64,000 bases of DNA from an uncultured Actinomycetes bacterium. GTDB lineage: Bacteria; Actinomycetota; Coriobacteriia; Anaerosomatales; CAVRZR01. Position 1 is the first letter of the stretch; every line of letters starts with the position of its first letter. Positions 20,271 to 59,335 of the stretch are shown here, piece by piece. Under the pieces are notes generated by a model. That model did not search any database and was not told the DNA's origin. It saw only the letters and a list, made by a program, of their open reading frames with translations. Location: NCBI GenBank assembly GCA_963809535.1, contig CAWEJW010000001.1:617354-681353 (forward strand), written 5' to 3'. The position numbers and the translations under genes are program-made.

Positions 20271-22112
<1,842 letters not shown>

Positions 22113-22678: not shown

Positions 22679-23995
22679 ATGGATCAGAGACAGAAGAACT
22701 TCATCTCGCTCGGGGTCATTGCAGTCCTCGTGATCGCCTCGTGGGTGCTGTTCATCCCGCCGAACAAGAAGATCACGCAGGGCCTCGACCTTCAGGGCGG
22801 GATCTCGGTGATCCTCACAGCGCAGGAGACGACCGCGACCGCGGTTACCGCTGCCGTCATGGACCGCGCCGAGCTGATCGTGAACAACCGCGTGAACAAG
22901 CTGGGTGCGTCGGAGGCTTCGATCCAGAAGCAGGGCAGCGATTCGATCCTCGTTCAGCTGCCGGGCATACGAAACGCGCAGGAAGCCCTCAAAGTGCTCG
23001 GTTCAACGGGTCAGCTGGAGTTCGTCGATGTAGAGTCGATCACGGATTCTGCGACGGTCGCAGCGCTTCAGTCTGGGGAGCAGAACGTCCAGCTCAAGAC
23101 CGGCACCTACACGCCACTCATGACCGGCGAGGTCATCACGAACGCGAGCGTGGGCACTGACTCGACGACGAACAAGATCGTCGTGAACGTCTCTATGGAC
23201 AACAAGGGTCGGCAGATCTGGGCCGACTACACCACGACTCACGTCGGCAAGCAGGTGGCGATCGTCCTGGACGGCAGGGTCGAATCGGCGCCGTCCGTCA
23301 ATGAGCCGATCACGGATGGGCGCACCCAGATAAGCGGCAGCTTCACCGCCGCGGAGGCGAAGAACCTCAAGACCGTGCTCGAGACGGGCGCGTTGCCCGT
23401 CACGCTCGTCTTCTCTGAGTCGAGAGTCGTGGGTCCTACACTCGGCCAGGACTCTCTTCGCCAGGGCGTCCTCGCGGGACTCCTTGGTCTCGTTCTCGTC
23501 TCCATCTACATGGCTCTCTTCTATCGCGGGCTCGGCCTGATCAGTTGGGGCTCGCTCTTCATCTTCGCGTCGATCTTCCTCGGCGTGCTCGGTCTGCTCT
23601 CGAGCTTTGGTTGGTTCGCGCTGTCGCTGCCGGGCGTCGCAGGTATCGTGCTCACGATCGGCATCGCTGCCGACTCGACCATCCTGATGCTCGAGCGCTT
23701 CAAGGAAGAAGTGCGGATGGGAAAGACCCTGCGCAGTGCGGCGAAATCCGGCACGATGCACGCGTTCTTCACGAGCATGGACGCGGACCTGGTGACCTTC
23801 GTCTCGGCCCTGGTGCTCTTCCTCGTGGCGGTCGGCCCGGTTCGTGGATTCGCCCTGACACTCATGATCGGCATCGCGTGTGACCTCACCGTCGCCTTCC
23901 TCTTCACTCGCACGTCGATCATGCTCTTCGCCGAATCGGGACTCACGAAGGTGCCCTGGCTGTTCGGCCTGAAGGGGGGTGCCGCTCGTGCGTAA
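22679..23995 (+). CDS. secD: protein translocase subunit SecD
   Basis: Motifs LGLDLQGG, I....V..LG..E..I...G...I.V.LPG, VAIVLDG and GIA.D..I...ER..EE. Confidence 0.95.
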   Translation: MDQRQKNFISLGVIAVLVIASWVLFIPPNKKITQGLDLQGGISVILTAQETTATAVTAAVMDRAELIVNNRVNKLGASEASIQKQGSDSILVQLPGIRNAQEALKVLGSTGQLEFVDVESITDSATVAALQSGEQNVQLKTGTYTPLMTGEVITNASVGTDSTTNKIVVNVSMDNKGRQIWADYTTTHVGKQVAIVLDGRVESAPSVNEPITDGRTQISGSFTAAEAKNLKTVLETGALPVTLVFSESRVVGPTLGQDSLRQGVLAGLLGLVLVSIYMALFYRGLGLISWGSLFIFASIFLGVLGLLSSFGWFALSLPGVAGIVLTIGIAADSTILMLERFKEEVRMGKTLRSAAKSGTMHAFFTSMDADLVTFVSALVLFLVAVGPVRGFALTLMIGIACDLTVAFLFTRTSIMLFAESGLTKVPWLFGLKGGAARA

Positions 23996-24884
23996 GCAAA
24001 TCGATTTCATGGGTCACAAGTGGATCTTCTTCGGGCTCTCGGCGGTGCTGATCGTCATCTCGATCGCCAGCTTGGCGATCAAAGGCCTGAATCTGGGCAT
24101 CGAATTCGAGGGCGGCACTGTCGTCAACTTCACGGCGGCGAAGGACGTTACCATTGGTCAGATGCGGAACGCCTTCACCGATGCGGGGATACCCGAGCCT
24201 GGGGTTCAGTCCGTTCAGGGAGGTGGCTTCATCGTCCGATTCGCAGAGTCGAATCCGGACAAGGCGAACGCTGCCTACCAGCAGGTGATCAAGACACTCT
24301 CGCTGCCGAGCGACGCCGGCGACGTAACCACCATCGGTCCCGGATGGGGGAAGCTCGTTACCAGCCGTTCACTCCTCGCGGCCGCACTGGCGATAGCCGC
24401 CATCCTGCTCTACATCTCGCTACGCTACGACTACAAGATGTCGCTGACGGCTGTACTGGCGCTCGTGCACGACGGCATCATCGTGCTCGGCATCTACTCG
24501 CTGTTCGGCTTCGAGGTCACGCCGAACACGATTGCGGCACTGCTCACGATCCTCGGTTTCTCGCTCTACGACACGATCGTCGTCTTCCATCGGATCAAGG
24601 AGAACTCCCAGCACATCTCCAAGCAAACGTTCTCACAGATGGCGAACGAGTCGATCAACCAGGTTCTTGTGCGCTCCATAAACACGTCGCTCACGGCGCT
24701 GATTCCCGTCGTCATGCTGCTGATCTTCGGCGGGTCGACGCTGCAGGACTTCGCCTTCGCACTCTTCATCGGCCTCATCTCGGGTGCATACTCGTCCATC
24801 GGCGTCGCCGCGATCATCTACTCGATGTGGAGAGAGACCGAGCCGCGGTTCCAGGCGCTCAAGAAGAAGTACGCAGCCGCGTAG
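23988..24884 (+). CDS. secF: protein translocase subunit SecF
   Basis: IDFMGHKW..., GI.F.GGT and L.GFSLYDTIVVFDRI-like motifs. GTG start after GAAGGGGGG. Alternative starts are 23979 and 24009. Confidence 0.95.
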   Translation: MRKQIDFMGHKWIFFGLSAVLIVISIASLAIKGLNLGIEFEGGTVVNFTAAKDVTIGQMRNAFTDAGIPEPGVQSVQGGGFIVRFAESNPDKANAAYQQVIKTLSLPSDAGDVTTIGPGWGKLVTSRSLLAAALAIAAILLYISLRYDYKMSLTAVLALVHDGIIVLGIYSLFGFEVTPNTIAALLTILGFSLYDTIVVFHRIKENSQHISKQTFSQMANESINQVLVRSINTSLTALIPVVMLLIFGGSTLQDFAFALFIGLISGAYSSIGVAAIIYSMWRETEPRFQALKKKYAAA

Positions 24885-24916
24885 CGCACCTGGACTACGT
24901 CAGCTTGTCGAATTGC

Positions 24917-24943
24917 CGGGGCCGACCGTTTGTGTCGGCCCCG
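24917..24943 (+). terminator. hairpin after secF (10-bp perfect stem)
   Basis: CGGGGCCGAC-CGTTTGT-GTCGGCCCCG. The downstream tract is only weakly T-rich. Confidence 0.5.
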
Positions 24944-24948
24944 TCGTC

Positions 24949-24954
24949 TAGGAT
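24949..24954 (+). promoter_or_regulatory. -10-like hexamer TAGGAT 6 nt before the recJ-fusion ATG (leaderless candidate)
   Basis: TCTAGGATGGGCAC-ATG with no SD. Confidence 0.35.
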
Positions 24955-24960
24955 GGGCAC

Positions 24961-27900
24961 ATGGGGAAGGCTCGACACGCGCTGAGTCGCTGGCAGCTTG
25001 CACCCGCGGACGCTTCGGCCGTACACAGGCTCGCATCAGCGGTCGGTCTGTCCGAGATCACGGCGCGAGTCCTCGTCGGCCGCGGGATGACCGATCCCGA
25101 GACTGCCGAGCGCTTCCTTTCGCCCGATCTTGAGCGTGACTGGCTCGACCCGTCCCTGATCCCGGGCATGTCCGAGGCTGCCGACCGGGTTGCCCAAGCC
25201 GCCGGCTCGCACGAACGCGTCGTGGTCTTCGGCGACTTCGACCTGGACGGGATCGCGTCGGCTGCGCTTACCGCTCTCGGCCTGCGGGCCATGGGTGCGG
25301 ACGTCCGGGCAATCGTGCCGCACCGATTCCGGGAGGGGTACGGCCTATCACCGGCTGCGCTTACGCGCGTGTTCGCCGCCCATCCCGACCTCGTCGTCAC
25401 CGTCGATTGCGGAATCTCGGCCAGAGCCGAGGTCGCGGTGCTGGCAGCGCGGGGAGTCGCATGCGTCGTCACCGACCATCACGAACCCGGCCGGGACCTG
25501 CCTCCAGACATTCCGGTTGCGAACCCCAAACTCGACCCCGCTTGTCCATCGCACGCCCTTGCGGGCGCGGGCGTCGCTCTGAAGCTCGTGCAGGCGGTCG
25601 GCGAGCGCCTCGGCTTCCCGGACGTGTGGCGTGACCTTGTGGACCTCGCCACCCTGGGGACGGTCGCGGACATCGTCCCCCTCACGGGCGAGAACCGCGC
25701 GCTCGTCTCGGCCGGCCTTCGAGCGATGAGCGCCGCGCCGCGGCTCGGCATCGCAGCTCTCGCCTCCGCGGCCGGCATCTCACTCGAGTCACTCGATGCC
25801 GACAACATCGCGTTCGCGCTGGCGCCCCGCCTCAACGCGCCGGGGCGCATGGGCGATCCCGACGACGCCCTTCAGCTGCTCCTCACTGACGATTCGGTCC
25901 TCGCCGAGCAACTCGCGCTTTCCCTGGACGAGCAGAACCGCGCGCGCCAGACCAGCGAGCAGGACCTGACCGAGGCGGCGCTCGCCCAAGCGGAGAGGGT
26001 CTACGCAGGTGAGCGGGCGCTCGTGCTGGCCGGGGAAGGCTGGCACGAGGGCGTGAAGGGCATCGTTGCGTCCCGCGTCGCCGCGGAGTACGGGGTCCCG
26101 ACCCTGCTCTTCACCATCGAGGACGGTGAGGCCCGAGGCTCTGGGCGGACGGCGGGCTCCGTCGACCTCTTCCGCGCGCTGTCGGACGCGAGTTCGTGCC
26201 TCACGCGCTATGGAGGTCATGCGGCAGCCGTGGGATGCGCGCTTCCCCAGGGATCGCTCGACCAGTTCCGGCGCGACTTGCTGGAGGTGCTCGACGCGCT
26301 CCCAGCAGAGGAGCTGGCCGTCGAGTTGCGCTACGACGCCGACATCGCTCTGGAGGACGTGGGTCTGGAGCTCGCGGCCGAGCTCGAACGGTTGGCGCCA
26401 TACGGTTCGGGAAACCCCAAACCGATCCTCGCCACCCGGTCGGTCTTCATGAATGGGCGGCAGCGAGTGGGTCGGACCGGCAGTCACCTGCGCTTCATGG
26501 CGTTCGATGGCGGAGCGTCCGTGCCGGCGATCGCCTTCAGATGTCGAGACATCGAAGAAGTCGTCGCCAAGGACGGTCCCATGGACATCGCGTTCGAGAT
26601 CGCGGCCGACGAATGGCGCGGTCGCCGACGCGTCCAGCTCCTGGTGCGCGACATGAAGGACTCGTCGGTCGCGGGCGGTGTCGAGGAGCCCCTCACCTCG
26701 ATCGGCATACTCATCGAGGACCTCTTCGAGCGCGCCGACGAGATCATCGCCCGTGAGGAATACGCCGGTATCGGCGACGCCGAGTCCTTCCACACGAAGC
26801 TGGCTGGCGTCACCTTCGAAGGGCGACAGGACGTTCTGGCCCGGCTGGCGCTGGGTACCCCTTTGCGTCTGGAGCGCCAGCCCTCGAATGAGCACGACAC
26901 GAACGCGATCGCTCTCTTCGATCCATTCGGGGACCAGGTAGGCTTCTTCAACCGAAGACTCTCGGCAGCGCTCGCGCCGGTCATCGACTCCGGAACCACC
27001 TACGACGTTGAAGTCACGGACGTGACCGGGGGGGACGAAGGCCGCAGCCTCGGCGTGAACGTCTTGGTGAGCCAGCGGGGAGCGAGCCAGGCAGCCGAGG
27101 CCTTCGCCGAGCTACGGGCACAGCGGCGGGCCAAACTCGCGGCCATGCCGGCGTCAGAGTTGGATGCAGAGCTCACGCGCCTCTTCCTCGGCGACAGGCG
27201 GCTCCACGCGGCACAAGCGCGGGCGCTCGCGCATCTTGCGCAAGGTGCGAACACGCTGCTCGTCATGGCAACGGGCCGCGGCAAGTCCGTTGTCTTCCAC
27301 CTCCACGCTGCGCGCTTGGCGCTTCGCGACGCTCGCGCGTCCGTGTTCGTGTACCCGCTTAGGGCGCTCGTATCGGATCAGGCCTTCCACCTCGAGAACA
27401 CGTTCGCCGAAGCGGGATTGGCGGTGCGCACGCTCACAGGGGAGACTTCTCCCGGGGCGCGTGACGAGACGTTCGCGGACCTGACCGAGGGCTCGCTCGA
27501 CGTCGTTCTCACGACACCCGAGTTCCTCGACCACCATGCCGCTCGCTTCGCCGATGCTGCCCGCGTCGGCTTCGTTGTCGTCGATGAAGCCCACCACGTC
27601 GGCATGGCCAGAGCCGGACATCGGCCGGCGTACGCCAGACTCGACCGCGCGCTCGATGCCCTGGGCAACCCTCTCGTGCTTGCGGCGAGCGCCACCGCGG
27701 GGGATGAGACTGCTCGGGCGATACGGTCGGTTTTGGGCATTGACAAGGTCGTCGCGGACCCAACCGTGCGCGACAACCTTCGAATCGAGGACAAGCGAGA
27801 CCACGCCGACAAGGACACGTACATCTGCTCGCTGGCGGCGAGCGGCGAGAAGATGATCGTCTACGTGAACTCGCGTGAGCAGTCAGTGCGCCTCGCGCGC

Positions 27901-28608
27901 ATGTTGCGAAAGCGGGTACCCGGGGTCGCCGCGCGCACGGCCTTCTACAACGGCGGGTTGTCGCGTGAGGCGCGCGCCGCCATCGAGCACGCGTTCCGCA
28001 CCGGCGAGGTCTCGGCTGTCGTCGCCACAAGCGCGTTCGGGGAGGGAGTCAACATCCCCGACATTCGACACGTCGTGCACTTCCATCTGCCCTTTGGGGA
28101 AGTCGAGTTCAACCAGATGTCCGGTCGGGCAGGTCGCGACGGGGCCTCCGCGTCCGTGCACCTTCTCTTCGGGAAGAAGGATGCGCGCATCAATGAGGCC
28201 ATCCTCTCGGCCCTGGCACCTGGGCGAGAGGACCTGGCTGCGCTCTACCTCGTGCTACGCGACGAACAAGCGGCCTCGGGCGGGAGTTTCGAGGTCACGA
28301 ATGCCGAACTCGCCGAGCGGGCGCATCGCCGTCGCAAGCAGTTCGCGCTCGACGAGCGCGGCGTCTCTTCGGCCCTCGGGATCCTCCGCGAGTTGGGGCT
28401 GGTGGACGGGGAGGGGCACGGGTCCTATCGGCGACTCACCCTCCTGCCAGCTCCCGCCGAGAAGCTCGATCTGTCCGACTCAGTGCGCTACGCCGAGGGA
28501 CTCGATGAGATCGCCGAGTTCGGAGAGTTCAAACAGTGGGTGTTCTCGGCTGAACCGGCGTTGTTGCTCGAGCGGTTCAACCGTCCTATCCTGCCAACAC
28601 AGCTCTGA
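24961..28608 (+). CDS. recJ: RecJ exonuclease fused to a HIRAN domain and a RecQ-like DEAH helicase (1215 aa)
   Basis: N-terminus has the DHH family motifs (FGDFDLDG, DHH in VVTDHHEP, DHHA1 region). The middle (about 26788-27075) is HIRAN-like: LAGVTFEGRQD...L.RQPSNEHD.NAI.LF. The C-terminus has helicase motifs I (ATGRGKS), II (VVDEAHHV) and VI (QMSGRAGRDG). Confidence 0.85.
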   Translation: MGKARHALSRWQLAPADASAVHRLASAVGLSEITARVLVGRGMTDPETAERFLSPDLERDWLDPSLIPGMSEAADRVAQAAGSHERVVVFGDFDLDGIASAALTALGLRAMGADVRAIVPHRFREGYGLSPAALTRVFAAHPDLVVTVDCGISARAEVAVLAARGVACVVTDHHEPGRDLPPDIPVANPKLDPACPSHALAGAGVALKLVQAVGERLGFPDVWRDLVDLATLGTVADIVPLTGENRALVSAGLRAMSAAPRLGIAALASAAGISLESLDADNIAFALAPRLNAPGRMGDPDDALQLLLTDDSVLAEQLALSLDEQNRARQTSEQDLTEAALAQAERVYAGERALVLAGEGWHEGVKGIVASRVAAEYGVPTLLFTIEDGEARGSGRTAGSVDLFRALSDASSCLTRYGGHAAAVGCALPQGSLDQFRRDLLEVLDALPAEELAVELRYDADIALEDVGLELAAELERLAPYGSGNPKPILATRSVFMNGRQRVGRTGSHLRFMAFDGGASVPAIAFRCRDIEEVVAKDGPMDIAFEIAADEWRGRRRVQLLVRDMKDSSVAGGVEEPLTSIGILIEDLFERADEIIAREEYAGIGDAESFHTKLAGVTFEGRQDVLARLALGTPLRLERQPSNEHDTNAIALFDPFGDQVGFFNRRLSAALAPVIDSGTTYDVEVTDVTGGDEGRSLGVNVLVSQRGASQAAEAFAELRAQRRAKLAAMPASELDAELTRLFLGDRRLHAAQARALAHLAQGANTLLVMATGRGKSVVFHLHAARLALRDARASVFVYPLRALVSDQAFHLENTFAEAGLAVRTLTGETSPGARDETFADLTEGSLDVVLTTPEFLDHHAARFADAARVGFVVVDEAHHVGMARAGHRPAYARLDRALDALGNPLVLAASATAGDETARAIRSVLGIDKVVADPTVRDNLRIEDKRDHADKDTYICSLAASGEKMIVYVNSREQSVRLARMLRKRVPGVAARTAFYNGGLSREARAAIEHAFRTGEVSAVVATSAFGEGVNIPDIRHVVHFHLPFGEVEFNQMSGRAGRDGASASVHLLFGKKDARINEAILSALAPGREDLAALYLVLRDEQAASGGSFEVTNAELAERAHRRRKQFALDERGVSSALGILRELGLVDGEGHGSYRRLTLLPAPAEKLDLSDSVRYAEGLDEIAEFGEFKQWVFSAEPALLLERFNRPILPTQL

Positions 28609-28630
28609 CGGGAAGGACGAGCGCAGAGTC

Positions 28631-30859
28631 ATGCCTGCGACGCTCGAACAGATAGAAGCGCACGTACAGGAATACAATCCTGGCGCGGACCTGAGCGGGC
28701 TGGCCGACGCGTACGAGTTTGCCGTCGAGGCTCACGAAGGTCAGATGCGCAAGTCTGGCGAGCCCTTCGTTCGGCACCCACTCGAGGTGTGTCTCATCTT
28801 AGCCGAGCTCCACCTCGACACGGCAACGCTCATGGCGGCCCTCCTGCACGACGTCGTCGAGGACTCCGGGGTGCCGCTTTCGGTCATTCGCGAGCGATTC
28901 GGTGACGAGGTCGCCGACCTCGTGGACGGTGTCACCAAACTCGGCAAGATCAAGTTTGCCTCGCTGGCCGAGGAGCAGAGCCAGAACATGCGCAAGATGC
29001 TCATCGCGATGGCCAAGGACATCCGCGTCATTCTGATCAAGCTCGCCGACCGTCTCCACAACATGCGCACGCTCGCGGCCTTGCCCGAGGAACGGCGGCG
29101 CGAGAAGGCCATCGAGACGATGGAGATCTACGCGCCGCTCGCGCACCGCCTGGGTATCTCAAGCATCAAGTGGGAGCTCGAGGACCTGGCGTTCTACTAC
29201 CTTGAGCCGCACAAATTTCACCAGGTTGCACGGATGGTCGCCGAGAGCCGAGAGGCGCGCGAGGCCTACCTCAATCAGGTCGTCGACCAGCTCCAGACCG
29301 AGTTGCGCGCGATCGGCGTCGAAGCCGACATCAAGGGGCGCCCGAAGCACCTCTACAGCATCTATCAGAAGATGGCGCGCAAAGGTAAGGACTTCAACGA
29401 GATCTACGACCTCATCGCCCTTCGCGTCATCGTCGGCTCGGTCAAGGACGTATACGGAGCACTCGGCACCGTTCACTCCATTTGGAAGCCGGTCCCGGGC
29501 CGCTTCAAGGACTATGTCGCGATGCCCAAGTTCAACATGTATCAGTCGCTGCACACGACCGTCATAGGTCCTGCCGGTCGCCCGCTGGAGATTCAGATCC
29601 GCACCGAAGAGATGCATCGCACCGCCGAGTACGGCATCGCTGCTCACTGGCGCTACAAGGAAGGGAGCCGGGGAGACGAGTCGTTCGACGAGAGACTCGC
29701 ATGGCTGCGTCAGATGCTCGAGTGGCAGACCGAGCTCAAGGACCCCCGCGAGTTCATGGAAGCCCTCAAGATCGACCTGTTCGAGGACGAGGTCTTCGTC
29801 TTCACTCCCAAGGGCGATGTCGTGTCCCTTCGAAGGGGATCGACTCCGATCGACTTCTCGTACGCAATCCACACCGAAGTCGGAAACCACACGGTCGGAG
29901 CCAAGGTGAACGGCGCGATCGTCCCGCTCGGCTACGAGCTGCAGATGGGCGATCGCGTAGAGATCATGACGAACAAGAGCTCGTCTCCGTCGAGGGACTG
30001 GCTCAACATCGTGCGCACGTCGAGTGCGCGGTCCAAGATCCGAAGCTACTTCTCGAAGGTGAACCGGGTCGACGATCTCCAGCATGGCCGAGAGGAGCTC
30101 GGCAAGGTCATGCGCAAGCACGGCATGGGGATCGGGTCGTCGACGGCCGCCAAGGCCCTTGAAGCCGTCGCCAAGGACATGAACTACGCGTCTGCTGACG
30201 ACATGCTCGCCGGCATCGGAGGAGGCAAGCTCTCGGCCAAGCAAGTCGGCACCAAGCTCCTCAAGCGCATGGCAAAAGAGGGCCAGAGTGGGGTCGCCGA
30301 GAAGCTCCCCCCAGAATCGCCGGGTACGCTTCCACTCACGCAGCCGATGCGGCCACCGCGCTCGAAGCGCCACAAGACCGGTGGGGGCGTGAAGGTCGTC
30401 GGTATCGACGACGTGCTCGTGCGACTGGCGCGCTGCTGCAATCCCGTTCCCGGCGACGCCATCGTCGGTTTTGTGACCCGCGGCAGGGGAGTGTCGGTTC
30501 ATCGCCGTGACTGCCCGAACGCGGCTGAGTTGCTCAAATCACCCGAGAGGATCATCGAGGTCGAGTGGGACCGCGCGGCGGCCGCAACGTATCAAGTTGA
30601 GATTTACGTTGAGGGTTTGGACCGGATGCGGCTCCTGCAGGACGTAACCGCGGCACTTGGGGAGTCAGGCGTGAACATCCTCGCGGCTTCGGCGAACACA
30701 CATCACGACGGCATCGTGAACATGCGGTTCCTCTTCGAGCTGGGTGATATGGACCAGCTCCAGTCGGTGCTGCGGACCGTGCACGCGATCGACGGGGTCT
30801 TCGAGGCGCGCCGCATGCTGCCGGGCGAAAGCAGCGGCCAGCGCAAGGCGGGCGGCTAG
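28631..30859 (+). CDS. relA: bifunctional (p)ppGpp synthetase/hydrolase RelA/SpoT
   Basis: HD domain (HPLEV...LHDVVED), synthetase domain (RPKH.YSIY.KM, DL.A.R.I), TGS and ACT regions. Internal ATG with GAAGGA SD. Confidence 0.95.
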   Translation: MPATLEQIEAHVQEYNPGADLSGLADAYEFAVEAHEGQMRKSGEPFVRHPLEVCLILAELHLDTATLMAALLHDVVEDSGVPLSVIRERFGDEVADLVDGVTKLGKIKFASLAEEQSQNMRKMLIAMAKDIRVILIKLADRLHNMRTLAALPEERRREKAIETMEIYAPLAHRLGISSIKWELEDLAFYYLEPHKFHQVARMVAESREAREAYLNQVVDQLQTELRAIGVEADIKGRPKHLYSIYQKMARKGKDFNEIYDLIALRVIVGSVKDVYGALGTVHSIWKPVPGRFKDYVAMPKFNMYQSLHTTVIGPAGRPLEIQIRTEEMHRTAEYGIAAHWRYKEGSRGDESFDERLAWLRQMLEWQTELKDPREFMEALKIDLFEDEVFVFTPKGDVVSLRRGSTPIDFSYAIHTEVGNHTVGAKVNGAIVPLGYELQMGDRVEIMTNKSSSPSRDWLNIVRTSSARSKIRSYFSKVNRVDDLQHGREELGKVMRKHGMGIGSSTAAKALEAVAKDMNYASADDMLAGIGGGKLSAKQVGTKLLKRMAKEGQSGVAEKLPPESPGTLPLTQPMRPPRSKRHKTGGGVKVVGIDDVLVRLARCCNPVPGDAIVGFVTRGRGVSVHRRDCPNAAELLKSPERIIEVEWDRAAAATYQVEIYVEGLDRMRLLQDVTAALGESGVNILAASANTHHDGIVNMRFLFELGDMDQLQSVLRTVHAIDGVFEARRMLPGESSGQRKAGG

Positions 30860-31615: not shown

Positions 31616-31825
31616 CCGACGTAGCGGCGAACCGCGGGCAACGGGGTTCGCCTCCCGAAGGTTGAGCGGGGGAACCAGATCGCTCGGGGGAGCAGTAAGG
31701 TTCCCGAACCCTGCCAAGCCACGGTTGGGTCTCTCGGTCTTGGGGCCGGCATCCTGTCACGGATGGGAGGTGCTGATAGCGGGGAAGTGACAGCAGATGA
31801 TCTTGCGATCAAGGAGAAGAAGACA
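31616..31825 (+). promoter_or_regulatory. ~200-nt structured 5' leader of the hexahaem cytochrome gene (class unknown)
   Basis: Stems are GGCGAACC(31626-33)/GGTTCGCC(31645-52), GAGCG/CGCTC and GGGAACC/GGTTCCC (mutually nested or pseudoknotted), and CTGTCAC(31754-60)/GTGACAG(31786-92) just before AAGGAG. Confidence 0.3.
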
Positions 31826-33307
31826 ATGAAGAAGGTTCTTATCGTTGTGGCGCTTGCAGTGGCGTTGACCTTTGCGATAACCGTCGTTGCATTCGCCGAT
31901 CACTCGCCGTCGTTCTACATCCAGTGGAACGAAGAGGGCGGCTTTGAAGGTGCGAACGCGTTCGTCACGAGCCCGCACGCCGGGTACGTCGAGGGCACAC
32001 AGAAGTGCGGCGTGTGCCACGCCGTCCACCGTGCAGCGGTTCAAGGTCTGGGTTGGGAGCCAGGCGGTCAGCTCTATCCTGCCGAGATCGGCGGAGAGAA
32101 CAGGGCCGCGCGGCTGCAGTACAGCGCACCGTTCTTGGGCGAAACACAGATGCTGCTGCAGACTCCCGTCTCGGGAAATTGTGACTACTGCCACATCACG
32201 ACCTCGATCGGCGCGATCCAGATCTATGCAGGTAAGGTCAAGTATCGCCTCGAGGCCAACGACGCTAATGGTGGCTCGAACTGGGAAGGTGGGTTCGCCC
32301 ACAACAACGCATGCACGGCGTGCCACGCGGTGCATGGTGCGTTCGCCAACCCGTTCGTCGCTGCTCCGACCGCAGCCGACAACGTCGTGTTCCAGGGCCC
32401 CTTGGCCGCCAAGGTCGTGAAGGGTTACGCCAAGAACAAGAGCACGACATGGCAGCGCGAGATCTACCTTGCCGGCACGAACTACGAGTCGAGCCTGTTC
32501 CCCGGCGTCCAGCCGGTCGTATCCTCAGCGGTCGACCCGCTGAACACGCCGCTCTTCGCGTCGAAGGCTGACGCGCTGGCGGGCACGAACGCTCGGGTCG
32601 GTGCTGATGTTGCCGACGCGCAGGTCAGCGCGCACTGCACGTTCTGCCACGAGAACTACGGCTACGCTGCAGAGGCCATGAACAACAGGGAGTTCTTCGG
32701 CAAGACGGTCGCCGAGGTTGCAGCGATCACCGGCACGAACAACCAACTGGAGTCCTACAAGCAGGGCGCGGGCCTCTTCCAGGGTCAGTGGAACATCAGG
32801 CTGGTTGCTGACGGCCCGCAGATCAGCGCACGCAACGCCTACAGCACGACGCCTACCGGCGGTACTGCTCCGTGGCTTGGCCCGGGCTTTGATGGGCACG
32901 TCGCCGTCAAGAACCACCCGATGAAGAGGGCCGTCACCACTGGCTGGTCCTCGGCTGGTGGCGCCGCTATCGCCCAGGTCGCATTCAAGGGCTCGGATAC
33001 GTGCCGTTCCTGTCACGACGCAGGTGTCGAGGGCGCTGGTGGAGTCATCATCCAGTCGTTCCCGCACTTCACGCCTGGCTACTTCAAGTTCCTGATTTCC
33101 GCGGACAATCTGGGCGCGGAGATGATGAACATCAACGCGATCCTCAAGGCGAACCCCAGGGCAATGACCCAGGGGGTTCTCGACACGGTCTGGGCAACGC
33201 TGGACGACCCGGCTGTCCAGGAAGCTGCTGAGTGCACGTCTGACGGTGCCTGCCTGAAGTGCCACATCAACGCTGACAAGAGCGCTGGTATTGGCCTTAC
33301 GTTCTAG
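31826..33307 (+). CDS. secreted hexahaem c-type cytochrome (493 aa)
   Basis: AAGGAG sits 9 nt upstream. Sec signal MKKVLIVVALAVALTFAITVVAFA/DH. Six CxxCH motifs: CGVCH, CDYCH, CTACH, CTFCH, CRSCH, CLKCH. Confidence 0.85.
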   Translation: MKKVLIVVALAVALTFAITVVAFADHSPSFYIQWNEEGGFEGANAFVTSPHAGYVEGTQKCGVCHAVHRAAVQGLGWEPGGQLYPAEIGGENRAARLQYSAPFLGETQMLLQTPVSGNCDYCHITTSIGAIQIYAGKVKYRLEANDANGGSNWEGGFAHNNACTACHAVHGAFANPFVAAPTAADNVVFQGPLAAKVVKGYAKNKSTTWQREIYLAGTNYESSLFPGVQPVVSSAVDPLNTPLFASKADALAGTNARVGADVADAQVSAHCTFCHENYGYAAEAMNNREFFGKTVAEVAAITGTNNQLESYKQGAGLFQGQWNIRLVADGPQISARNAYSTTPTGGTAPWLGPGFDGHVAVKNHPMKRAVTTGWSSAGGAAIAQVAFKGSDTCRSCHDAGVEGAGGVIIQSFPHFTPGYFKFLISADNLGAEMMNINAILKANPRAMTQGVLDTVWATLDDPAVQEAAECTSDGACLKCHINADKSAGIGLTF

Positions 33308-33346
33308 GCTTGACACTACAGACTGCTACTGACGCAGTCGAAGACA

Positions 33347-33373
33347 GGGTGGCCCTCCTTCGGGGGGGCCACC
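33347..33373 (+). terminator. hairpin after the hexahaem gene (partial terminator or stabiliser)
   Basis: GGGTGGCCC-loop-GGGCCACC followed by TTGCGTCTGTGTG. Confidence 0.5.
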
Positions 33374-33439
33374 TTGCGTCTGTGTGCGGCGCATGGGTCC
33401 TCCCATGTCGCGCTGGGTACCGTGATAGGATTCTTGAGG

Positions 33440-34444
33440 ATGACTTCCGGAATGGTGCCGAGGTCGATGGAACCGCAGGACGCAAAGCCAATGTCACGCA
33501 GACGGCGGGGAATCATCCTGGGCGTCGCCGGGGCTGTTCTGGTGTTGCTCGTTCTAGGGGCGGCCGCCTCGTCCCTTCCGTCCGGCTGCTCTTCTGTCTG
33601 TCACCGCGCCCAAGCCAAGACCCTCGCTTCGAGCGATCACAGCAATGTGTCCTGCTACCGTTGCCACCTGGCGCGCGGCGCCTGGAGCTACCCCGGCTTC
33701 ATTGGATCGATCCTGTTTCGCATGAATACTCGTGCGCTCACAGGCTCGGGCTACCACACTGCGGCCGTTCAAACTTCTCGGAGCGCGTGCATCCAGTGTC
33801 ATGAGGGGACATTCGAGCGGACGAGCCAATCCGGCGGGATCCGCATCAAGCACTCGAGCTGCGCACCCGGCCCCACGTGCGACCCATGCCATGCGGCCGT
33901 CGCTCACGGCTCGGCAGTGCGCTGGGACGGCACGTACTCGATGGATGACTGCGTTGCGTGCCACAGGGCGCAGACGGCTCCCACGGCGTGCGACACGTGC
34001 CATACCCAGAAGGCGCGGGCCGCTCGCACGCGCGGGGCGTGGCAGGTCACCCACGGCCCGAACTGGGAGAAGACGCACGGCCTGGGAGATCTGGATACCT
34101 GCAGCACCTGTCACGGTGAGGGGTTCTGCGAGAGGTGCCACAAGGCCCCTGTGCCCCATCCTGAGGACTGGGGCGGCACCCACGGGCAGTACGCGATCGA
34201 GGACCGAGCTTCGTGTGAGACCTGCCACTCCTCCAGCGCCTGGTGCGCCTCCTGCCATGGGACGCAGATGCCTCACCCGAGCGGATTCCTGCAAGAACAC
34301 AGCTCGATCGCCAGCGGCCTGGTCGATCCGGAGTGCACACACTGTCACGACGAGAGCGACTGCGCCACCTGCCACACCTACCACGTGCATCCGGGCGGTG
34401 CCTCTGGTGTCCCCGTGCTCCCAACCGCTACCGATGCCCGATGA
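33440..34444 (+). CDS. membrane-anchored multihaem c-type cytochrome (11 CxxCH + 1 CX3CH), NapC/NirT-like topology
   Basis: An N-terminal RRRR-TM helix (GIILGVAGAVLVLLVLGAAA) is followed at once by CSSVCH. Paired motifs such as CSTCHGEGFCERCH, CETCHSSSAWCASCH and CTHCHDESDCATCH follow. Start ambiguous, 33440-33491. Confidence 0.85.
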   Translation: MTSGMVPRSMEPQDAKPMSRRRRGIILGVAGAVLVLLVLGAAASSLPSGCSSVCHRAQAKTLASSDHSNVSCYRCHLARGAWSYPGFIGSILFRMNTRALTGSGYHTAAVQTSRSACIQCHEGTFERTSQSGGIRIKHSSCAPGPTCDPCHAAVAHGSAVRWDGTYSMDDCVACHRAQTAPTACDTCHTQKARAARTRGAWQVTHGPNWEKTHGLGDLDTCSTCHGEGFCERCHKAPVPHPEDWGGTHGQYAIEDRASCETCHSSSAWCASCHGTQMPHPSGFLQEHSSIASGLVDPECTHCHDESDCATCHTYHVHPGGASGVPVLPTATDAR

Positions 34445-35730
34445 CCGCCCTAGGGCCTGCATCCTCACTCCGGTTATTCGGTCTCACAGTGGGAGGCCTG
34501 GACTTCAATGGTGCCTACAATTCCTTCCTGAAGGCCCTGCGCGAGCCATCGGCGGATCCGACGTTGACGCTGCTCTTTGTTGCGGCTGCGGCGCTACTCG
34601 TCCTGCTCATCGCGTTGGCAGTCGCCATGGTGGCGACGCCGTCTCGCAAGCGGGTCGTGAAGGTCCGCCGATACCGCGGGTCGCCCGAGGAGATCGCGGC
34701 TGCCCGTGCCGCGGTTGCTGCGCGAGCCGCTTCGGCGGCCGATGAAGGCGACCGCGAGGAGAGCCCGGCGAAGCCCGAAAAGGGAGGACCTCGACCGTTC
34801 TGGTCCAGGCCTACGTTCTTCATCGTCGTTGGCGTCGTGATCCTGGCACTGGCCGCCTATGGTGCCACGTCCACCAACGCCTACTGCGCCCGCACGTGTC
34901 ACGGCGGCACGCCCGCGGTGCGTTCGGCGACCAAGGTCGGACATGCCCCGTGCACCTCGTGTCATGAGGACAACGCGATCACCGGGGTCTTCGACAACAC
35001 CGTGGCTCGCGCCGCGATGCTGGCGGGCCAGGCCGCAGGCCGCAGTCCAGATACCCCGAATGTCGCCGCCGAATCGGCGGCTTGCCTGCACTGTCACGAA
35101 GCGGTGAAGACGGGCATCGTCGAGTCGTCGTCCGGGGTCAAGATGTCCCACGCCGAACCTCTGAAAGCCGGGCAGCCCTGCACCAGTTGCCACCCGGACA
35201 CAGGTCACGTGAGTGCGGGATACACCATGGGCATGCCTCCGTGCCTTCCGTGCCACGATGGCAAGACGGCGCCGATCACGTGCAGTCTGTGCCATCGAGG
35301 GGACCCCATGAGTCCAGTCGTGGCCGCTGCCTCAAACGAGGCGTCGGGCGGAGTGAGCTACCCGGCGGTCCGGGCGGCAAACCATGAATGCGGGGGCTGC
35401 CACGATCAAGAGCAGACGTGCGATCCCTGTCACGGCATCCGGATGCCCCATAGCCAGACGTTCATCGAGGGCGGCCATGCGAGATACGCCGCGTGGAACA
35501 ATAAGCAGACCTACTGCTCGCGCTGCCACCAACTTTCCACCTGTGCGGGGAAGTGCCACACGTCGTTCAACGGGCCGACGGGGCACAGCGCTGATTGGGA
35601 GGTCATGCACCAGGACTCTCCATGGGATTCGGGGTGCCCCTGCCACAGCGCGAGAAGCCCGCGTGCCGGCCCGCTGTGCTACCGGTGTCACGATCCGAAG
35701 ACGAAAGAGCTGCTCCCCCTGAGACCCTGA
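34441..35730 (+). CDS. membrane-anchored multihaem c-type cytochrome, paralog of the preceding gene (9 CxxCH + 2 CX3CH + 1 degenerate CPCH)
   Basis: ATGA overlap with the upstream stop. Two TM helices, the second followed at once by CARTCH. Collinear with the upstream paralog (MPPCLPCHDGKTAPITCSLCH versus MDDCVACHRAQTAPTACDTCH). Confidence 0.85.
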   Translation: MTALGPASSLRLFGLTVGGLDFNGAYNSFLKALREPSADPTLTLLFVAAAALLVLLIALAVAMVATPSRKRVVKVRRYRGSPEEIAAARAAVAARAASAADEGDREESPAKPEKGGPRPFWSRPTFFIVVGVVILALAAYGATSTNAYCARTCHGGTPAVRSATKVGHAPCTSCHEDNAITGVFDNTVARAAMLAGQAAGRSPDTPNVAAESAACLHCHEAVKTGIVESSSGVKMSHAEPLKAGQPCTSCHPDTGHVSAGYTMGMPPCLPCHDGKTAPITCSLCHRGDPMSPVVAAASNEASGGVSYPAVRAANHECGGCHDQEQTCDPCHGIRMPHSQTFIEGGHARYAAWNNKQTYCSRCHQLSTCAGKCHTSFNGPTGHSADWEVMHQDSPWDSGCPCHSARSPRAGPLCYRCHDPKTKELLPLRP

Positions 35731-35764
35731 GGCATCGACAGGCGCTTTGTGCCGCGACCACAGC

Positions 35765-35794
35765 GGCCCGCCGAATCGCTCTCCAGGGCGGGCC
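35765..35794 (+). terminator. possible terminator hairpin after the cytochrome operon
   Basis: GGCCCGCC-14 nt-GGCGGGCC followed by TTGCTGCATCTTC. The loop is long and the T tract weak. Confidence 0.3.
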
Positions 35795-36010
35795 TTGCTG
35801 CATCTTCGGGACGGATCACTTCAGCGGTGCCGCGAAGGTGCCGATACTCTGGCACGGACGGACATGTGGCTAACCCCGGTCCTCTTCTCCTGCCGGGGCT
35901 GCCGACCGCAGCGACCCTCGCCTGTTACGGGGGTCGTTCTGCGTCCTAGGGGCGCGGGGCCCAGGGAGGTCGAGCGTGCTGCCGACCAGATGCGCCCATC
36001 TGCGGACGCG

Positions 36011-37099
36011 TCATTTGCTTTCGGGGATACGCAGGATCTGGATCCGGTTGTTCGTCGTGTCCGCTACGGCAAACCAGTCGCGTTCCTTGTCATAAGCGAT
36101 GCCCGTTGGGTTGTTGAACAGGCCGTCTGTCGCGCCGTAGTCGCCGTACATGGCCGACGTCTGGTCGTGCTCCTTTGCCACTTTGCCGGTTTTGGCATCC
36201 AGCACGATGATCTTGAACTTGAACGCGTCGACAAGCACGATCCTGCCCTTGGCATCCATCGTCATCCCTGTGGGCATCTCGAAGGGATTCTTCGGGTCGG
36301 GTGTGCGCCGAATGTCGACTGTCGAGGAATCCTCGCGATTGGGAGCCGTGCCGGATATCCAGAGCAGGCGGCCGTCTTCTGAGTACGCCTTCACGCGTCG
36401 GTTCTGAGTGTCGGAGACATAGAGGGTGCCATCCGGACCGAGAAGGATCCCGTGCACCACGTCGAACTGCTCCTTGTCGGTCCCGCGGGTGCCGCCAAGC
36501 TGCATCAAGATCTGGTCGTCAGGCGTGAACACCGCGATGCCCTTGGTACTGCCGACGGCGATCTTGCCGTCACGAACGTCGACGACATTCGGCAGCTCCA
36601 CCCGCCATTTGGTCACGAACGTCCCGTCTGGACGGAACTCAAGAACCTGCCCGCCGAAGTCGGCGGTCCATAGATTGCCGTCCTCGTCCACCGAGATCCC
36701 CTCGAGTGAAACGATGCCCTTGGGTTCGATGACCCGCTTGACCGTGCCATTGGGATTGAACCCGACGATGTGGGAGTGTCCAGAGATCGCCCAGATCGTG
36801 CCATCGGGGCCAATGGCGACGTCGGTGGGTGCTTCGAGTTGCTGGTCAGCTTGGGTGCCCCACCCGTAGAGCGACCTGACCCACGTGACTCCGGATGGCA
36901 GCTCGGCCTTCGTCGGAGCTGCTGAGGGACGGGTCAATCTGAGCACGCCGTACGCCACGACGGCGAGAAGCAGCACGAGTACCCCAAGGATAACGGCGAG
37001 CACTCGGCGCTGTCGTCGATTGTCGACGTACTCGACGACGGTTTCGGCGTATTCCCCAGGCTCTTGGATTCCGGGCGTTGTCTCGGGCGTCTCGCTCAT
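36011..37099 (-). CDS. membrane-anchored NHL-repeat beta-propeller protein
   Basis: GGAGGA SD and an N-terminal TM helix (VLAVILGVLVLLLAVVAYGVL). Repeated blades follow: P.GIA..DG.I.V.D..N.RV, e.g. GPDGTLYVSDTQNRRVKAY and FNNPTGIAYDKERDWFAVADTTNNRIQIL. Confidence 0.8.
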   Translation of the reverse strand: MSETPETTPGIQEPGEYAETVVEYVDNRRQRRVLAVILGVLVLLLAVVAYGVLRLTRPSAAPTKAELPSGVTWVRSLYGWGTQADQQLEAPTDVAIGPDGTIWAISGHSHIVGFNPNGTVKRVIEPKGIVSLEGISVDEDGNLWTADFGGQVLEFRPDGTFVTKWRVELPNVVDVRDGKIAVGSTKGIAVFTPDDQILMQLGGTRGTDKEQFDVVHGILLGPDGTLYVSDTQNRRVKAYSEDGRLLWISGTAPNREDSSTVDIRRTPDPKNPFEMPTGMTMDAKGRIVLVDAFKFKIIVLDAKTGKVAKEHDQTSAMYGDYGATDGLFNNPTGIAYDKERDWFAVADTTNNRIQILRIPESK

Positions 37100-37130
37100 G
37101 AGTCAGTCCTCCAGGCGCGGCTGGCGCAGT

Positions 37131-37907
37131 CTACTTGTCCGTGGCTTCGGCCTTCTTGAGGCCTTCTGTGGCGGAGGCGTCGTCAGGCAGGAACTGCAGC
37201 GCGTACTTGAAATCCTTGGCGGCTGAAGTCTTGTCGCCGGCACCCAACTCGGCCCATCCCCGCAATACGATGATATCGGCCGCCTGCTCGTCCAGCGCCA
37301 GTGCCGCATTGAAGGATTGGATCGCTTCCTTGTACTTCTTCAGGTTCTGCTGTGCAGTGCCTCGCAGCACGAGCAGCCTGATGGTCGTACTGTTGTTCTG
37401 CGCCTCGTCGGGGACACGAATCCCCTTCTGGAGGTTCGCGTTGAACTCCTCTTTCAGCAACGCCTCGTCCTTCAAGAGGTATGCCTGGGAGCGCGCCAAA
37501 GCCTCCGCGTTCCTTCCTTCGAGGATGAGGAGGTGGAGGTCGACGTTGTTGACCTCACGGATGGTCTTGTCGGTGACTTGCGTGCGAGCGCGCACCAGGG
37601 CTTCCTGCGCGCCTTCCTTGTCGCCAACGGCGTACAACGCCTCGGCGTAGTCAGCCCACGCCTGCCCATTGCCAGGGTTCGCTTTGACAGCCGACTCGTT
37701 GGCGGCTCGCACCGACTCAGCCCAGGTACGCGGCGTGGAGCGGAAGAACACCCCCGTCAACAGAGCGTACGCAAGCACGGCCACGATCAGGCAGCCGACG
37801 CCGATGGACGCCCAGAGCAGTATGCGGGATACCCGATCTGGCGAAGACTCGAGAGGTTCTTCCACGTACTCAGGCGTCTCAGAGAATGGCGAGCCACTCA
37901 TTTGCAC
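37131..37907 (-). CDS. membrane-anchored TPR-repeat protein
   Basis: One TM helix (ILLWASIGVGCLIVAVLAYALL), then TPR-like helical repeats (AWADYAEALYAVGDKEGAQEAL; YKEAIQSFNAALALDEQ; AAKDFKYALQFLPDD). Upstream of and co-oriented with the NHL gene. Start is GTG 37907 or ATG 37901. Confidence 0.75.
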   Translation of the reverse strand: MQMSGSPFSETPEYVEEPLESSPDRVSRILLWASIGVGCLIVAVLAYALLTGVFFRSTPRTWAESVRAANESAVKANPGNGQAWADYAEALYAVGDKEGAQEALVRARTQVTDKTIREVNNVDLHLLILEGRNAEALARSQAYLLKDEALLKEEFNANLQKGIRVPDEAQNNSTTIRLLVLRGTAQQNLKKYKEAIQSFNAALALDEQAADIIVLRGWAELGAGDKTSAAKDFKYALQFLPDDASATEGLKKAEATDK

Positions 37908-38153
37908 GACCTCACTTCCCGACGCCTGCCTGCGAGCAGCCGGGCCCCCTGGGTCAGCGGCGTTCCTTCAAGTTCGACGCCTGCCCACTACGTCCTGCCG
38001 TTGTGCCCGGGCCGTCCAGTGCTTTGCGACTCCCGTGCCAGCAACAACGATACTCCCAAAGGCCGTTGGCGGGCATGATATCCATAGAAACTCCTTGGAC
38101 CGGTCTCGCCTGCGTCTTCGGGGGTCTCACATGTTGCTGACCAGCAGAATTGG

Positions 38154-38183
38154 TTGTGGGAAAGGGCGTGGACGCTCTATAAT
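38154..38183 (+). promoter_or_regulatory. candidate promoter of the large cytochrome gene (-35 TTGTGG, 18 nt, -10 TATAAT)
   Basis: TTGTGG at 38154-59 and TATAAT at 38178-83, in the 357-bp divergent region between the TPR and cytochrome genes. Confidence 0.4.
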
Positions 38184-38264
38184 GCGTGCTGAGCATCTTG
38201 GGGGGCCACGGGCGCTCTGGGGTTCCTGCACGAGTGTGACAACTGCAATTGCGAGGGTCGCCTG

Positions 38265-59206: not shown

Positions 59207-59335
59207 GAGTCTCTGAGTGCGCGTTGTGCCTGAATCACCATCGTGAGAGTATGAATCCGCGTGTCGCCCGACAGGGGAGAGTCGTGCGGCCGACTTGGTG
59301 CTACCCGACGGGCGAATGCGGAGGAGCTTGAATCA

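Follow-up and report, generated by a model that had tools for sequence, protein, structure and literature searches.

We describe a gene that joins a RecJ exonuclease to a RecQ-like helicase within one polypeptide. It lies at 24961-28608 on the forward strand of a 64,000-nucleotide stretch of contig CAWEJW010000001.1 (hereafter the window), from an uncultured member of the Coriobacteriia (assembly GCA_963809535.1). The product has a RecJ core, a HIRAN domain, a RecQ-like superfamily 2 (SF2) helicase and a C-terminal winged helix, in that order. The RecJ-HIRAN-RecQ-like fusion is real and not a product of assembly. It is the organism's housekeeping recJ and the standard recJ of the whole class Coriobacteriia. 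From the sequence evidence we consider it reasonably probable that this recJ encodes a single-chain helicase-nuclease for 5'-strand resection or for gap or fork processing.

Domain architecture

The gene is one open reading frame (ORF) with an ATG start, 1215 codons and a stop, and it has no internal stops. A Shine-Dalgarno-like AGGA at 24950..24953 (+), read directly from the sequence, stands 7 nt before the ATG. Public protein sets (NCBI/ENA) contain an identical 1215-residue product (P0001, 100% identity). A preliminary description, made from the sequence alone, had claimed a single uninterrupted ORF, and the ORF list and the translation agree with it. It also placed the end of the RecJ core near nt 26650 and HIRAN at 26788-27075, and these boundaries are correct within a few residues. 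The motifs it quoted (ATGRGKS, DEAH, QMSGRAGRDG and NEHDTNAIALF) are all present in the translation. The protein has six Pfam domains, and all of them exceed their own gathering scores, including the DHH, DHHA1, HIRAN, DEAD and Helicase_C domains for which that description had proposed a profile search.

The RecJ part matches the RecJ equivalog model TIGR00644 over residues 31-564 (model positions 2-545 of 546), with 458.2 bits against a cut-off of 396.9. The complete DHH/DHHA1 core that had been proposed is thus borne out. The DHH catalytic domain (residues 86-234, 25216..25662, +; Pfam PF01368, E 3.7e-20) comes with the DHH-family motifs DFDLDG at 92-97, DCG at 149-151, DHH at 172-174 and GTVAD at 233-237. 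These motifs are intact in the window protein and in 66/66 full-length representatives. The DHHA1 domain (residues 353-443, 26017..26289, +; PF02272, E 2.8e-11) has GGHAAA at 418-423 and aligns to Deinococcus radiodurans RecJ (5f54). The core ends with the RecJ OB fold (residues 458-564, 26332..26652, +; PF17768, E 1.1e-25), whose model is matched over its full length (1-107 of 107). An OB fold after DHHA1 completes the ring through which RecJ threads single-stranded DNA. The alignment to 5f54 covers DHH, DHHA1 and OB through residue 561 at E 2.7e-86, and alignments to solved PDB RecJ structures end at residues 514-565. Deinococcus RecJ has an extra C-terminal domain with no counterpart in the fusion, where HIRAN and the helicase take that place. 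By the curated equivalog threshold, the motifs and the OB fold the N-terminal part is RecJ, and its exonuclease activity is predicted.

An AlphaFold model was made for residues 570-1215, with a predicted local distance difference test (pLDDT) score of 85.4 and a predicted template modelling (pTM) score of 0.70. The first linker (residues 565-609, 26653..26787, +) is partly helical, with helices in the model at protein residues 580-597. It is the least conserved stretch of the protein, with a mean identity to the query residue of 0.47 and a gap fraction of 0.11 among 120 homologues. The HIRAN domain follows at residues 610-705 (26788..27075, +) and is the most conserved segment, with a mean identity of 0.76 versus 0.47-0.71 elsewhere in the same 120. 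Pfam PF08797 matches residues 610-680 at E 1.5e-10, with 41.2 bits against a cut-off of 24.7. A PDB sequence search finds the HIRAN domain of HLTF (2mzn, 4xzf, 5bnh, 4s0n) at E 2.3e-4 to 3e-4 and the bacterial HIRAN protein lp_0118 (3k2y) at E 0.042. What had been called a HIRAN-like module passes the Pfam threshold and matches HLTF HIRAN at E 2.3e-4. In the model it is beta-rich with a pLDDT of about 82-88.

The HIRAN motifs are GVTFEGR at 616-622 and NEHDTNA at 643-649. NPYD of HLTF aligns to NEHD. Asp646, which does not vary within the family, aligns to HLTF Asp94, and the position of HLTF Tyr93 is occupied by His645 in the window protein. In HLTF, Asp94 is a pocket residue for the 3' terminal nucleotides. 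Phe619 is likely the equivalent of HLTF Tyr72, going by the reading of motifs and not by structural superposition. Tyr72 and Tyr93 of HLTF border the pocket and stack on the bound single-stranded dinucleotide, and the HIRAN domain of HLTF is required for fork remodelling (PMC4666394). The 3'BD of PriA has structural and functional homology with HIRAN (PMC5778457). A second linker (residues 706-744, 27076..27192, +) consists of two long helices, residues 139-158 and 162-174 of the AlphaFold model, that lead to helicase motif 0.

The first RecA-like lobe of the helicase spans residues 745-917 (27193..27711, +). It is defined by Pfam DEAD (residues 751-917, E 1.9e-22) and by alignment to RecQ 4tmu, and it contains motif 0 (LHAAQ), a Walker A of ATGRGKS at 770-776, DEAH at 875-878 and SATA at 910-913. 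The second lobe (residues 953-1061, 27817..28143, +; Pfam Helicase_C, E 3.8e-24) has TSAFGEG at 1023-1029 and QMSGRAGRDG at 1052-1061, a RecQ-type motif VI that aligns to RecQ and RECQ4. The glutamine of motif 0, HRPAY at 887-891 after the DEAH and the QxSGRAGRDG pattern are all RecQ-type details. The window protein keeps motifs 0, I, II, III, V and VI undamaged, and they hardly vary across the family. The top PDB sequence matches are RecQ 4tmu (E 1.5e-32), RECQ4 5lst and E. coli RecQ 1oyw, then WRN and RECQ5. The fold gives the same picture. When the model is searched with Foldseek, RecQ-family structures make up 50/50 of the top matches. Bacterial RecQ (6crm/4tmu) is best at E 1.6e-21, followed by RECQL5, WRN, RECQ1 and BLM.

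The C-terminal tail (residues 1071-1215, 28171..28605, +) is modelled with a pLDDT of 93.1. It has a cysteine-free helical hairpin at 1072-1106, a winged helix at about 1110-1161, two terminal helices at 1175-1206 and a conserved NRPILP end. A winged-helix-like tail had been suggested earlier, and the predicted fold supports this. In the model the hairpin sits where the zinc module of RecQ would be. Some structural alignments of the whole core to RecQ and RECQ1 extend to 508-536 columns. Searched alone with Foldseek, the tail finds generic winged-helix proteins only (SmtB, PadR, MarR). The best has E 0.015 and none reaches E <= 1e-3, so the tail is not supported as a bona fide RQC domain. The accurate description of the C-terminal half is a RecQ-like helicase with a zinc-less winged-helix C-terminal domain, not a curated RecQ.

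Distribution of the fusion

The distribution was examined by scanning one genome per GTDB species with a profile of the helicase and tail. This found 565 relatives, and the best 80 loci were examined with family-built domain hidden Markov models (HMMs). In 76 of these 80 species-representative loci a single reading frame holds both RecJ and the helicase. Three of the other four are cut by a contig end, and in the last (L043) the frame that bears the helicase gives no match to RecJ. The carriers include isolates of Olsenella porci, O. intestinalis, Parafannyhessea umbonata, Collinsella tanakaei, C. massiliensis, C. bouchesdurhonensis and Gordonibacter pamelaeae. The gene's surroundings are conserved too, and on this synteny the genes are orthologues. 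Among the 80 loci relA is downstream in 70, a gene for an MBL hydrolase in 62, and secD/secF are upstream in 37-39, with many loci too short to show their neighbours.

Protein databases agree with the genome scan. There are more than 120 distinct clusters at 90% identity, with lengths of 1178-1252 residues, 61-78% identity and a shared Pfam set, from which the ResIII match alone is missing in one cluster. The named members are mostly proteins labelled 'RecJ' from metagenome-assembled genomes (MAGs) of Coriobacteriia. Residues 570-1215 were also searched against 1.84 billion representatives at 50% identity, which gave 661 matches at E <= 1e-30. Among the best 150 of these, about 57 have the order RecJ-HIRAN-helicase-tail, about 35 have RecJ-helicase-tail without HIRAN, and the rest are mostly short. 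About a quarter of the matches carry a source name, and the labels seen range from RecJ and RecQ to DEAD/DEAH box helicase and helicase-related protein. Outside the Coriobacteriia the fusion is found in an Armatimonadota MAG (MBI4279602.1), in Selenobaculum/Anaerosinus gibii (WP_309320743.1), in Peptococcus simiae (WP_408977392.1) and in MAGs of Peptococcaceae and other Bacillota. The spread of the fusion, which the preliminary description had left to be checked, is thus class-wide in the Coriobacteriia and scattered in Bacillota and Armatimonadota. Every module is under purifying conservation. The same frame in 76/80 genomes and the conserved architecture across clusters mean that the fusion is under selection and not accidental.

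It must be noted that some loci look like exceptions in the public records. One Coriobacteriia protein (P0415, 561 residues) was considered as a free-standing helicase. This reading is not supported: the protein occupies the recJ slot, where a scaffold run of N hides the middle of the gene and the two halves share a frame. Another call of a separate helicase (L086) comes from a locus with 300 N, where the halves lie in different frames. Short 'standalone' helicase representatives are fragments on contigs of 2-3.5 kb. In L086 and in two ENA gut metagenome scaffolds (L081, L082), runs of N inside recJ or overlapping frames have led to a called 'helicase' of 561-616 residues and to spurious ORFs on the opposite strand. 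Five further contigs (L024, L026, L027, L044, L076) carry Coriobacteriia-like recJ fusions with 52-56% identity to the query, and most have secDF or relA neighbours. They are titled as 'cleanbin' assemblies of Bacteroidaceae, Acutalibacteraceae, Agathobacter rectalis, Acidaminococcaceae and Alloprevotella. These contigs are probably mis-binned, since the titles name unrelated phyla while the fusions are Coriobacteriia-like.

Variants and free-standing relatives

The Atopobiaceae have HIRAN, and so do the MAGs of Coriobacteriia and Actinomycetota that are nearest to the window. Collinsella, Gordonibacter, Raoultibacter and other Eggerthellaceae (loci L048, L051, L055, L056, L059-L061, L063, L065-L074, L076 and L078-L080) lack it, as do some Bacillota. 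The fusions at the listed loci have only a linker of 50-80 residues between the OB fold and the helicase. The history of the domain was reconstructed by parsimony on a rough neighbour-joining tree of 134 fusions. This suggests that HIRAN was ancestral in the fusion and has been lost independently at least 11 times.

The HIRAN-helicase-winged helix portion also exists by itself. Free-standing proteins of 627-657 residues are 39-45% identical to residues 570-1215 of the window protein and span 98-100% of its helicase-plus-tail region. One is in a prophage of Anoxybacter fermentans (L083, 6001-7947 of its locus; CP016379.1 744342-758288), and an IMG/VR provirus (L088) is the same region. Another (L084, 6001-7974) is on a phage-like contig with Sipho_Gp157, SSB and RecU. 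A third (L085, 6001-7923) has defence-island-like surroundings, with TIR-SEFIR, PemK, CoiA, a methyltransferase and ResIII (restriction-modification genes). The Anoxybacter fermentans copy adjoins cI/Cro-like helix-turn-helix regulators, a replication initiator and SSB, and the prophage replication and recombination module around free-standing copies also includes ParM-like and DnaB-WHD initiator genes. In the rough tree the free-standing copies nest among the fused proteins of low G+C content. Phages and cells may have traded the C-terminal cassette.

GenBank phages yielded no full-length relative, and their matches are confined to the RecQ core at 25-31% identity, with some of the records resembling host DNA. 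BFVD gave giant-virus RecQ-like helicases only. IMG/VR has one true provirus copy. It also has two contigs with the RecJ fusion itself, which may be host fragments.

Proposed mechanism

The mechanism we propose starts from the known partnership. As quoted in PMC4846377, RecJ alone processes 5' overhangs, blunt or 3'-tailed ends need RecQ, and RecQ (3'->5') and RecJ (5'->3') together resect such ends in the RecF pathway. In the fusion the RecQ-like SF2 motor would bind a DNA end, a gap edge or a fork and move 3'->5' along one strand, driven by ATP. The 5' end of the displaced strand would enter the attached RecJ core, a DHH/DHHA1 ring with its OB fold, and be degraded 5'->3'. Helicase and nuclease would then travel the same way on the duplex. 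A 3' single-stranded tail, or a gap that has been widened, would be left behind for RecFOR/RecA. HIRAN may capture a free 3'-OH end and so load or orient the enzyme. At a break this 3' end could belong to the tracking strand, and at a gap or fork it could be the terminus of a primer or nascent strand. The C-terminal winged helix may bind duplex or a partner, as the winged helix of RecQ does. We infer the polarity of the helicase, the physical coupling of the two activities, the 3'-end binding by HIRAN and the substrates.

One can make a larger claim, in which the fusion is the main self-contained machine for 5'-end resection and gap processing in the Coriobacteriia and in scattered Bacillota and Armatimonadota. 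It would replace separate RecQ and RecJ proteins and would use HIRAN as its 3'-OH sensor, which would hold the 3' end while duplex is drawn in by the motor and the 5' strand is degraded by RecJ. We offer this larger claim as a speculation that is possible, though rather doubtful.

Several results weigh against the single-chain helicase-nuclease or limit the assignment to RecQ. The helicase scores below both curated RecQ models. TIGR00614 (recQ_fam) scores 162.9 bits against a cut-off of 219.8 and matches only model positions 9-344 of 470, and TIGR01389 (recQ) scores 163.2 bits against 640.2. The zinc module of RecQ has four cysteines, and there is no cysteine anywhere in residues 1062-1215, so the module is absent. 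No Pfam RQC match is found in the 1215-residue protein. No Pfam HRDC match is found in it at E <= 0.1, and it ends 10 residues past its terminal helices. The aromatic-rich loop of RecQ, which we take to be DEAHCISQWGHDFRPEY in E. coli, is partly kept as DEAHHVGMARAGHRPAY in the window protein. With the RecQ accessory elements missing and the loop partial, the coupling of ATP use to unwinding may differ. The term RecQ-like in the preliminary description is thus the right one. RecQ cores are the nearest relatives by both sequence and fold, but the score is below the recQ_fam cut-off and the zinc, Pfam RQC and HRDC elements are lacking.

The natural variants add to these doubts. HIRAN is not essential to the core activity of the fusion, since it has been lost repeatedly. 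Walker A, DEAH and motif VI are degenerate in 6 of the 66 representatives: P0238, P0246 (Armatimonadota MBI4279602.1), P0253, P0254, P0259 (Bacillota MFZ5943325.1) and P0261. All six keep the fold, the tail and the RecJ motifs, and four of the six keep HIRAN. By their motifs they are a minority branch of putative pseudo-helicases. ATP-driven unwinding is thus dispensable in some lineages.

Alternative explanations

The substrate might be narrower than we propose. HIRAN could clamp the 3' end of a nascent leading strand or primer, in the way of HLTF or the PriA 3'BD, while the motor unwinds or regresses the fork and RecJ trims the 5' end of the nascent lagging strand before restart. In favour of such a specialist for stalled forks and daughter-strand gaps, as opposed to an enzyme that resects breaks, no other segment of the protein is conserved as strongly as HIRAN. 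The idea also has precedents in the HLTF pocket (PMC4666394), in PriA (PMC5778457) and in the processing of blocked forks by RecQ and RecJ in ultraviolet-irradiated E. coli (Courcelle and Hanawalt 1999, as cited in PMC4846377). The presence of ruvC, ruvA, ruvB and rarA in the same window seems to point the same way. However, Gram-positive genomes ordinarily keep ruv and rarA linked as part of their conserved gene order. The fusion of RecJ to the helicase has outlasted many losses of HIRAN, and the sequence offers nothing to separate fork from end substrates. We think a fork specialist unlikely, if a serious candidate. A different objection concerns the motor. The helicase-like half could be mainly a DNA- or partner-binding appendage that positions or regulates RecJ, like the C-terminal domain of D. 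radiodurans RecJ. In lineages that retain it, ATP hydrolysis would then serve as a switch or to strip off SSB or RecA, with no unwinding of duplex. The six lineages with dead motifs agree with this, because they keep the fold, the tail and often HIRAN, and C-terminal extensions of other RecJ proteins serve protein interactions (PMC4846377). Yet in the window protein and in about 60 of the 66 representatives all of the ATPase and helicase motifs are undamaged and hardly vary, and this is hard to explain without catalysis. An appendage is therefore improbable.

The phage and defence contexts of the three free-standing relatives raise the idea that the HIRAN-helicase cassette is a mobile or anti-phage module that sits beside recJ by chance. 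The PADLOC models for DpdF and PsyrT also match the helicase core, at 194 and 181 bits. These matches are limited to the generic RecQ-like core, however, no partner defence genes are nearby in the window, and the module is in frame with recJ in a core housekeeping operon whose gene order is conserved across the Coriobacteriia loci examined. Membership in a defence system was rejected, since the PADLOC matches (DpdF, PsyrT, BrxH and Cas3-like) cover the helicase core only and the surroundings are housekeeping genes. A mobile-element or anti-phage function is very improbable. The least probable idea of all, to the point of being negligible, is that two genes have been merged by an assembly join, a frameshift or an overlooked stop codon. 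A separate helicase of 450-650 residues does occur among public gene calls. The one such call that was read through is due to a scaffold run of N, with both halves in the same frame. The single frame in 76/80 species genomes, including isolates of Olsenella, Parafannyhessea, Collinsella and Gordonibacter, led us to reject an artefact. A single-chain helicase-nuclease encoded by recJ is the explanation we prefer.

Comparison with known systems

The closest comparison is with the separate RecQ and RecJ of the RecF pathway in E. coli and D. radiodurans. The fusion pairs a RecJ orthologue with a helicase that is nearest to RecQ cores, and the expected geometry, with a 3'->5' motor feeding the 5' strand to a 5'->3' exonuclease, would be the same. 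Those models are two proteins, whereas the window has one polypeptide with HIRAN in between, and unlike RecQ its helicase has no zinc module, no HRDC, no Pfam RQC match and an incomplete aromatic-rich loop. WRN, which is among the top structural matches, is also a natural chain of exonuclease and SF2 helicase (DnaQ-like 3'-5' exonuclease with RecQ helicase). DinG of the S. aureus type has an exonuclease and an SF2 helicase in one chain as well (PMC12345164). The nuclease of the fusion differs from both in fold and has the opposite polarity (DHH-family 5'->3' versus DnaQ 3'->5'), and WRN, unlike the fusion, keeps Zn/RQC and HRDC elements.

HLTF/Rad5 proteins also join HIRAN to an SF2 ATPase, and the HIRAN core motif REPxNPxDxNA is conserved. 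The motor of the fusion is RecQ-like and not of the SNF2 type, however, there is no RING, the gene is a bacterial housekeeping gene, and a histidine replaces HLTF Tyr93. RecBCD/AddAB/AdnAB and Sgs1(BLM)-Dna2 are functional analogues, in which a processive helicase-nuclease resects 5' strands to make a substrate for RecA/Rad51. They belong to unrelated families (SF1 motors, PD-(D/E)XK nucleases) and have multiple subunits, and the fusion shows no sign of Chi-like regulation. DpdF and PsyrT have a similar helicase core, and the prophage HIRAN-helicases share the whole HIRAN-helicase-winged helix arrangement at the 39-45% identity given above. Unlike the fusion, all of these are free-standing, without RecJ, in phage replication modules or defence islands.

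Genomic setting

The gene order in the window is yebC, ruvC, ruvA, ruvB, queA, tgt, secD, secF, the fusion gene, relA/spoT and the MBL hydrolase gene, with hisS, aspS, rarA, alaS and mltG beyond it. The upstream neighbours include tgt (20724-22112) and secD (22679-23995). Directly upstream is secF (23979..24884, +; Pfam SecD_SecF_C at E 3.9e-57, plus Sec_GG). An overlapping frame at 24020-24985 was considered as secF and rejected in favour of this ORF. Directly downstream is relA/spoT (28631..30859, +), with Pfam HD_4, RelA_SpoT, TGS and ACT domains. With secD/secF before it and relA/spoT after it, the fusion gene occupies the canonical Gram-positive recJ slot, as the preliminary description had proposed from its position after secF. 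The ATG of relA is 22 nt past the stop of the fusion gene, so the two are probably co-transcribed as one operon.

The mechanically called ORF of relA (27875-30859) begins 756 nt too far upstream and so covers the 3' end of the fusion gene, which is read in a different frame. Translation of relA really starts at the ATG at 28631, which is preceded by a GGAAGGA site. Long spurious ORFs are frequent in the window, and the G+C content around the fusion gene is about 65%. The 76-nt spacer between secF and recJ contains a perfect 9-bp G+C-rich hairpin at 24916-24943, GGGGCCGAC-N10-GTCGGCCCC. It has no T tail and a terminator scan made no call there. The hairpin could be a stabiliser of the mRNA, or a processing or attenuation site.

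Two other regions of the window deserve a record. A cluster of multihaem c-type cytochrome genes at 31763-40982 lies between the MBL gene and hisS, amid housekeeping genes. It encodes a 905-residue MtrC/MtrF-like protein at 38265-40982 and others at 31763-33307, 33374-34444 and 34243-35730, and the region includes a minus-strand gene for an NHL-repeat protein (36011-37099). Farther along come, in this order, a PilB-type T2SSE ATPase (57539-59206), a protein with a Roadblock/LC7 domain (59261-60136) and one with DUF4388 (60171-61862). In an actinobacterial genome, the three may form a set that regulates motility or pili.

Implications

Helicase-nuclease fusions and the RecQ-RecJ partnership are already well known. 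A fusion of RecJ to a helicase or to HIRAN is apparently undescribed in the papers we searched, where HIRAN and RecJ are both mentioned in just one paper, on an unrelated subject. RecQ and RecJ are textbook partners of the RecF pathway, and their physical coordination has been argued from reconstitution with separate proteins. A conserved natural RecJ-HIRAN-RecQ-like enzyme is Rosetta-stone evidence for direct coupling, and as one polypeptide it is suited to structural and single-molecule work. The variants without HIRAN or with a dead helicase are ready-made domain-deletion experiments. The main known homes of HIRAN are phage proteins and the fork-reversal enzymes of eukaryotes. Its place in a core bacterial repair gene allows a test of whether 3'-end capture is the ancestral role of the domain. 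The carriers include common human gut Actinomycetota such as Collinsella, Olsenella and Gordonibacter. If the fusion is indeed the main resection machine of the Coriobacteriia, with HIRAN as its 3'-OH sensor, no housekeeping enzyme of bacteria would have been shown to use HIRAN before it. Nature would then also have supplied, in a single chain, a model for the coupling of a RecQ-type helicase to a 5' nuclease, as in BLM/Sgs1-Dna2.

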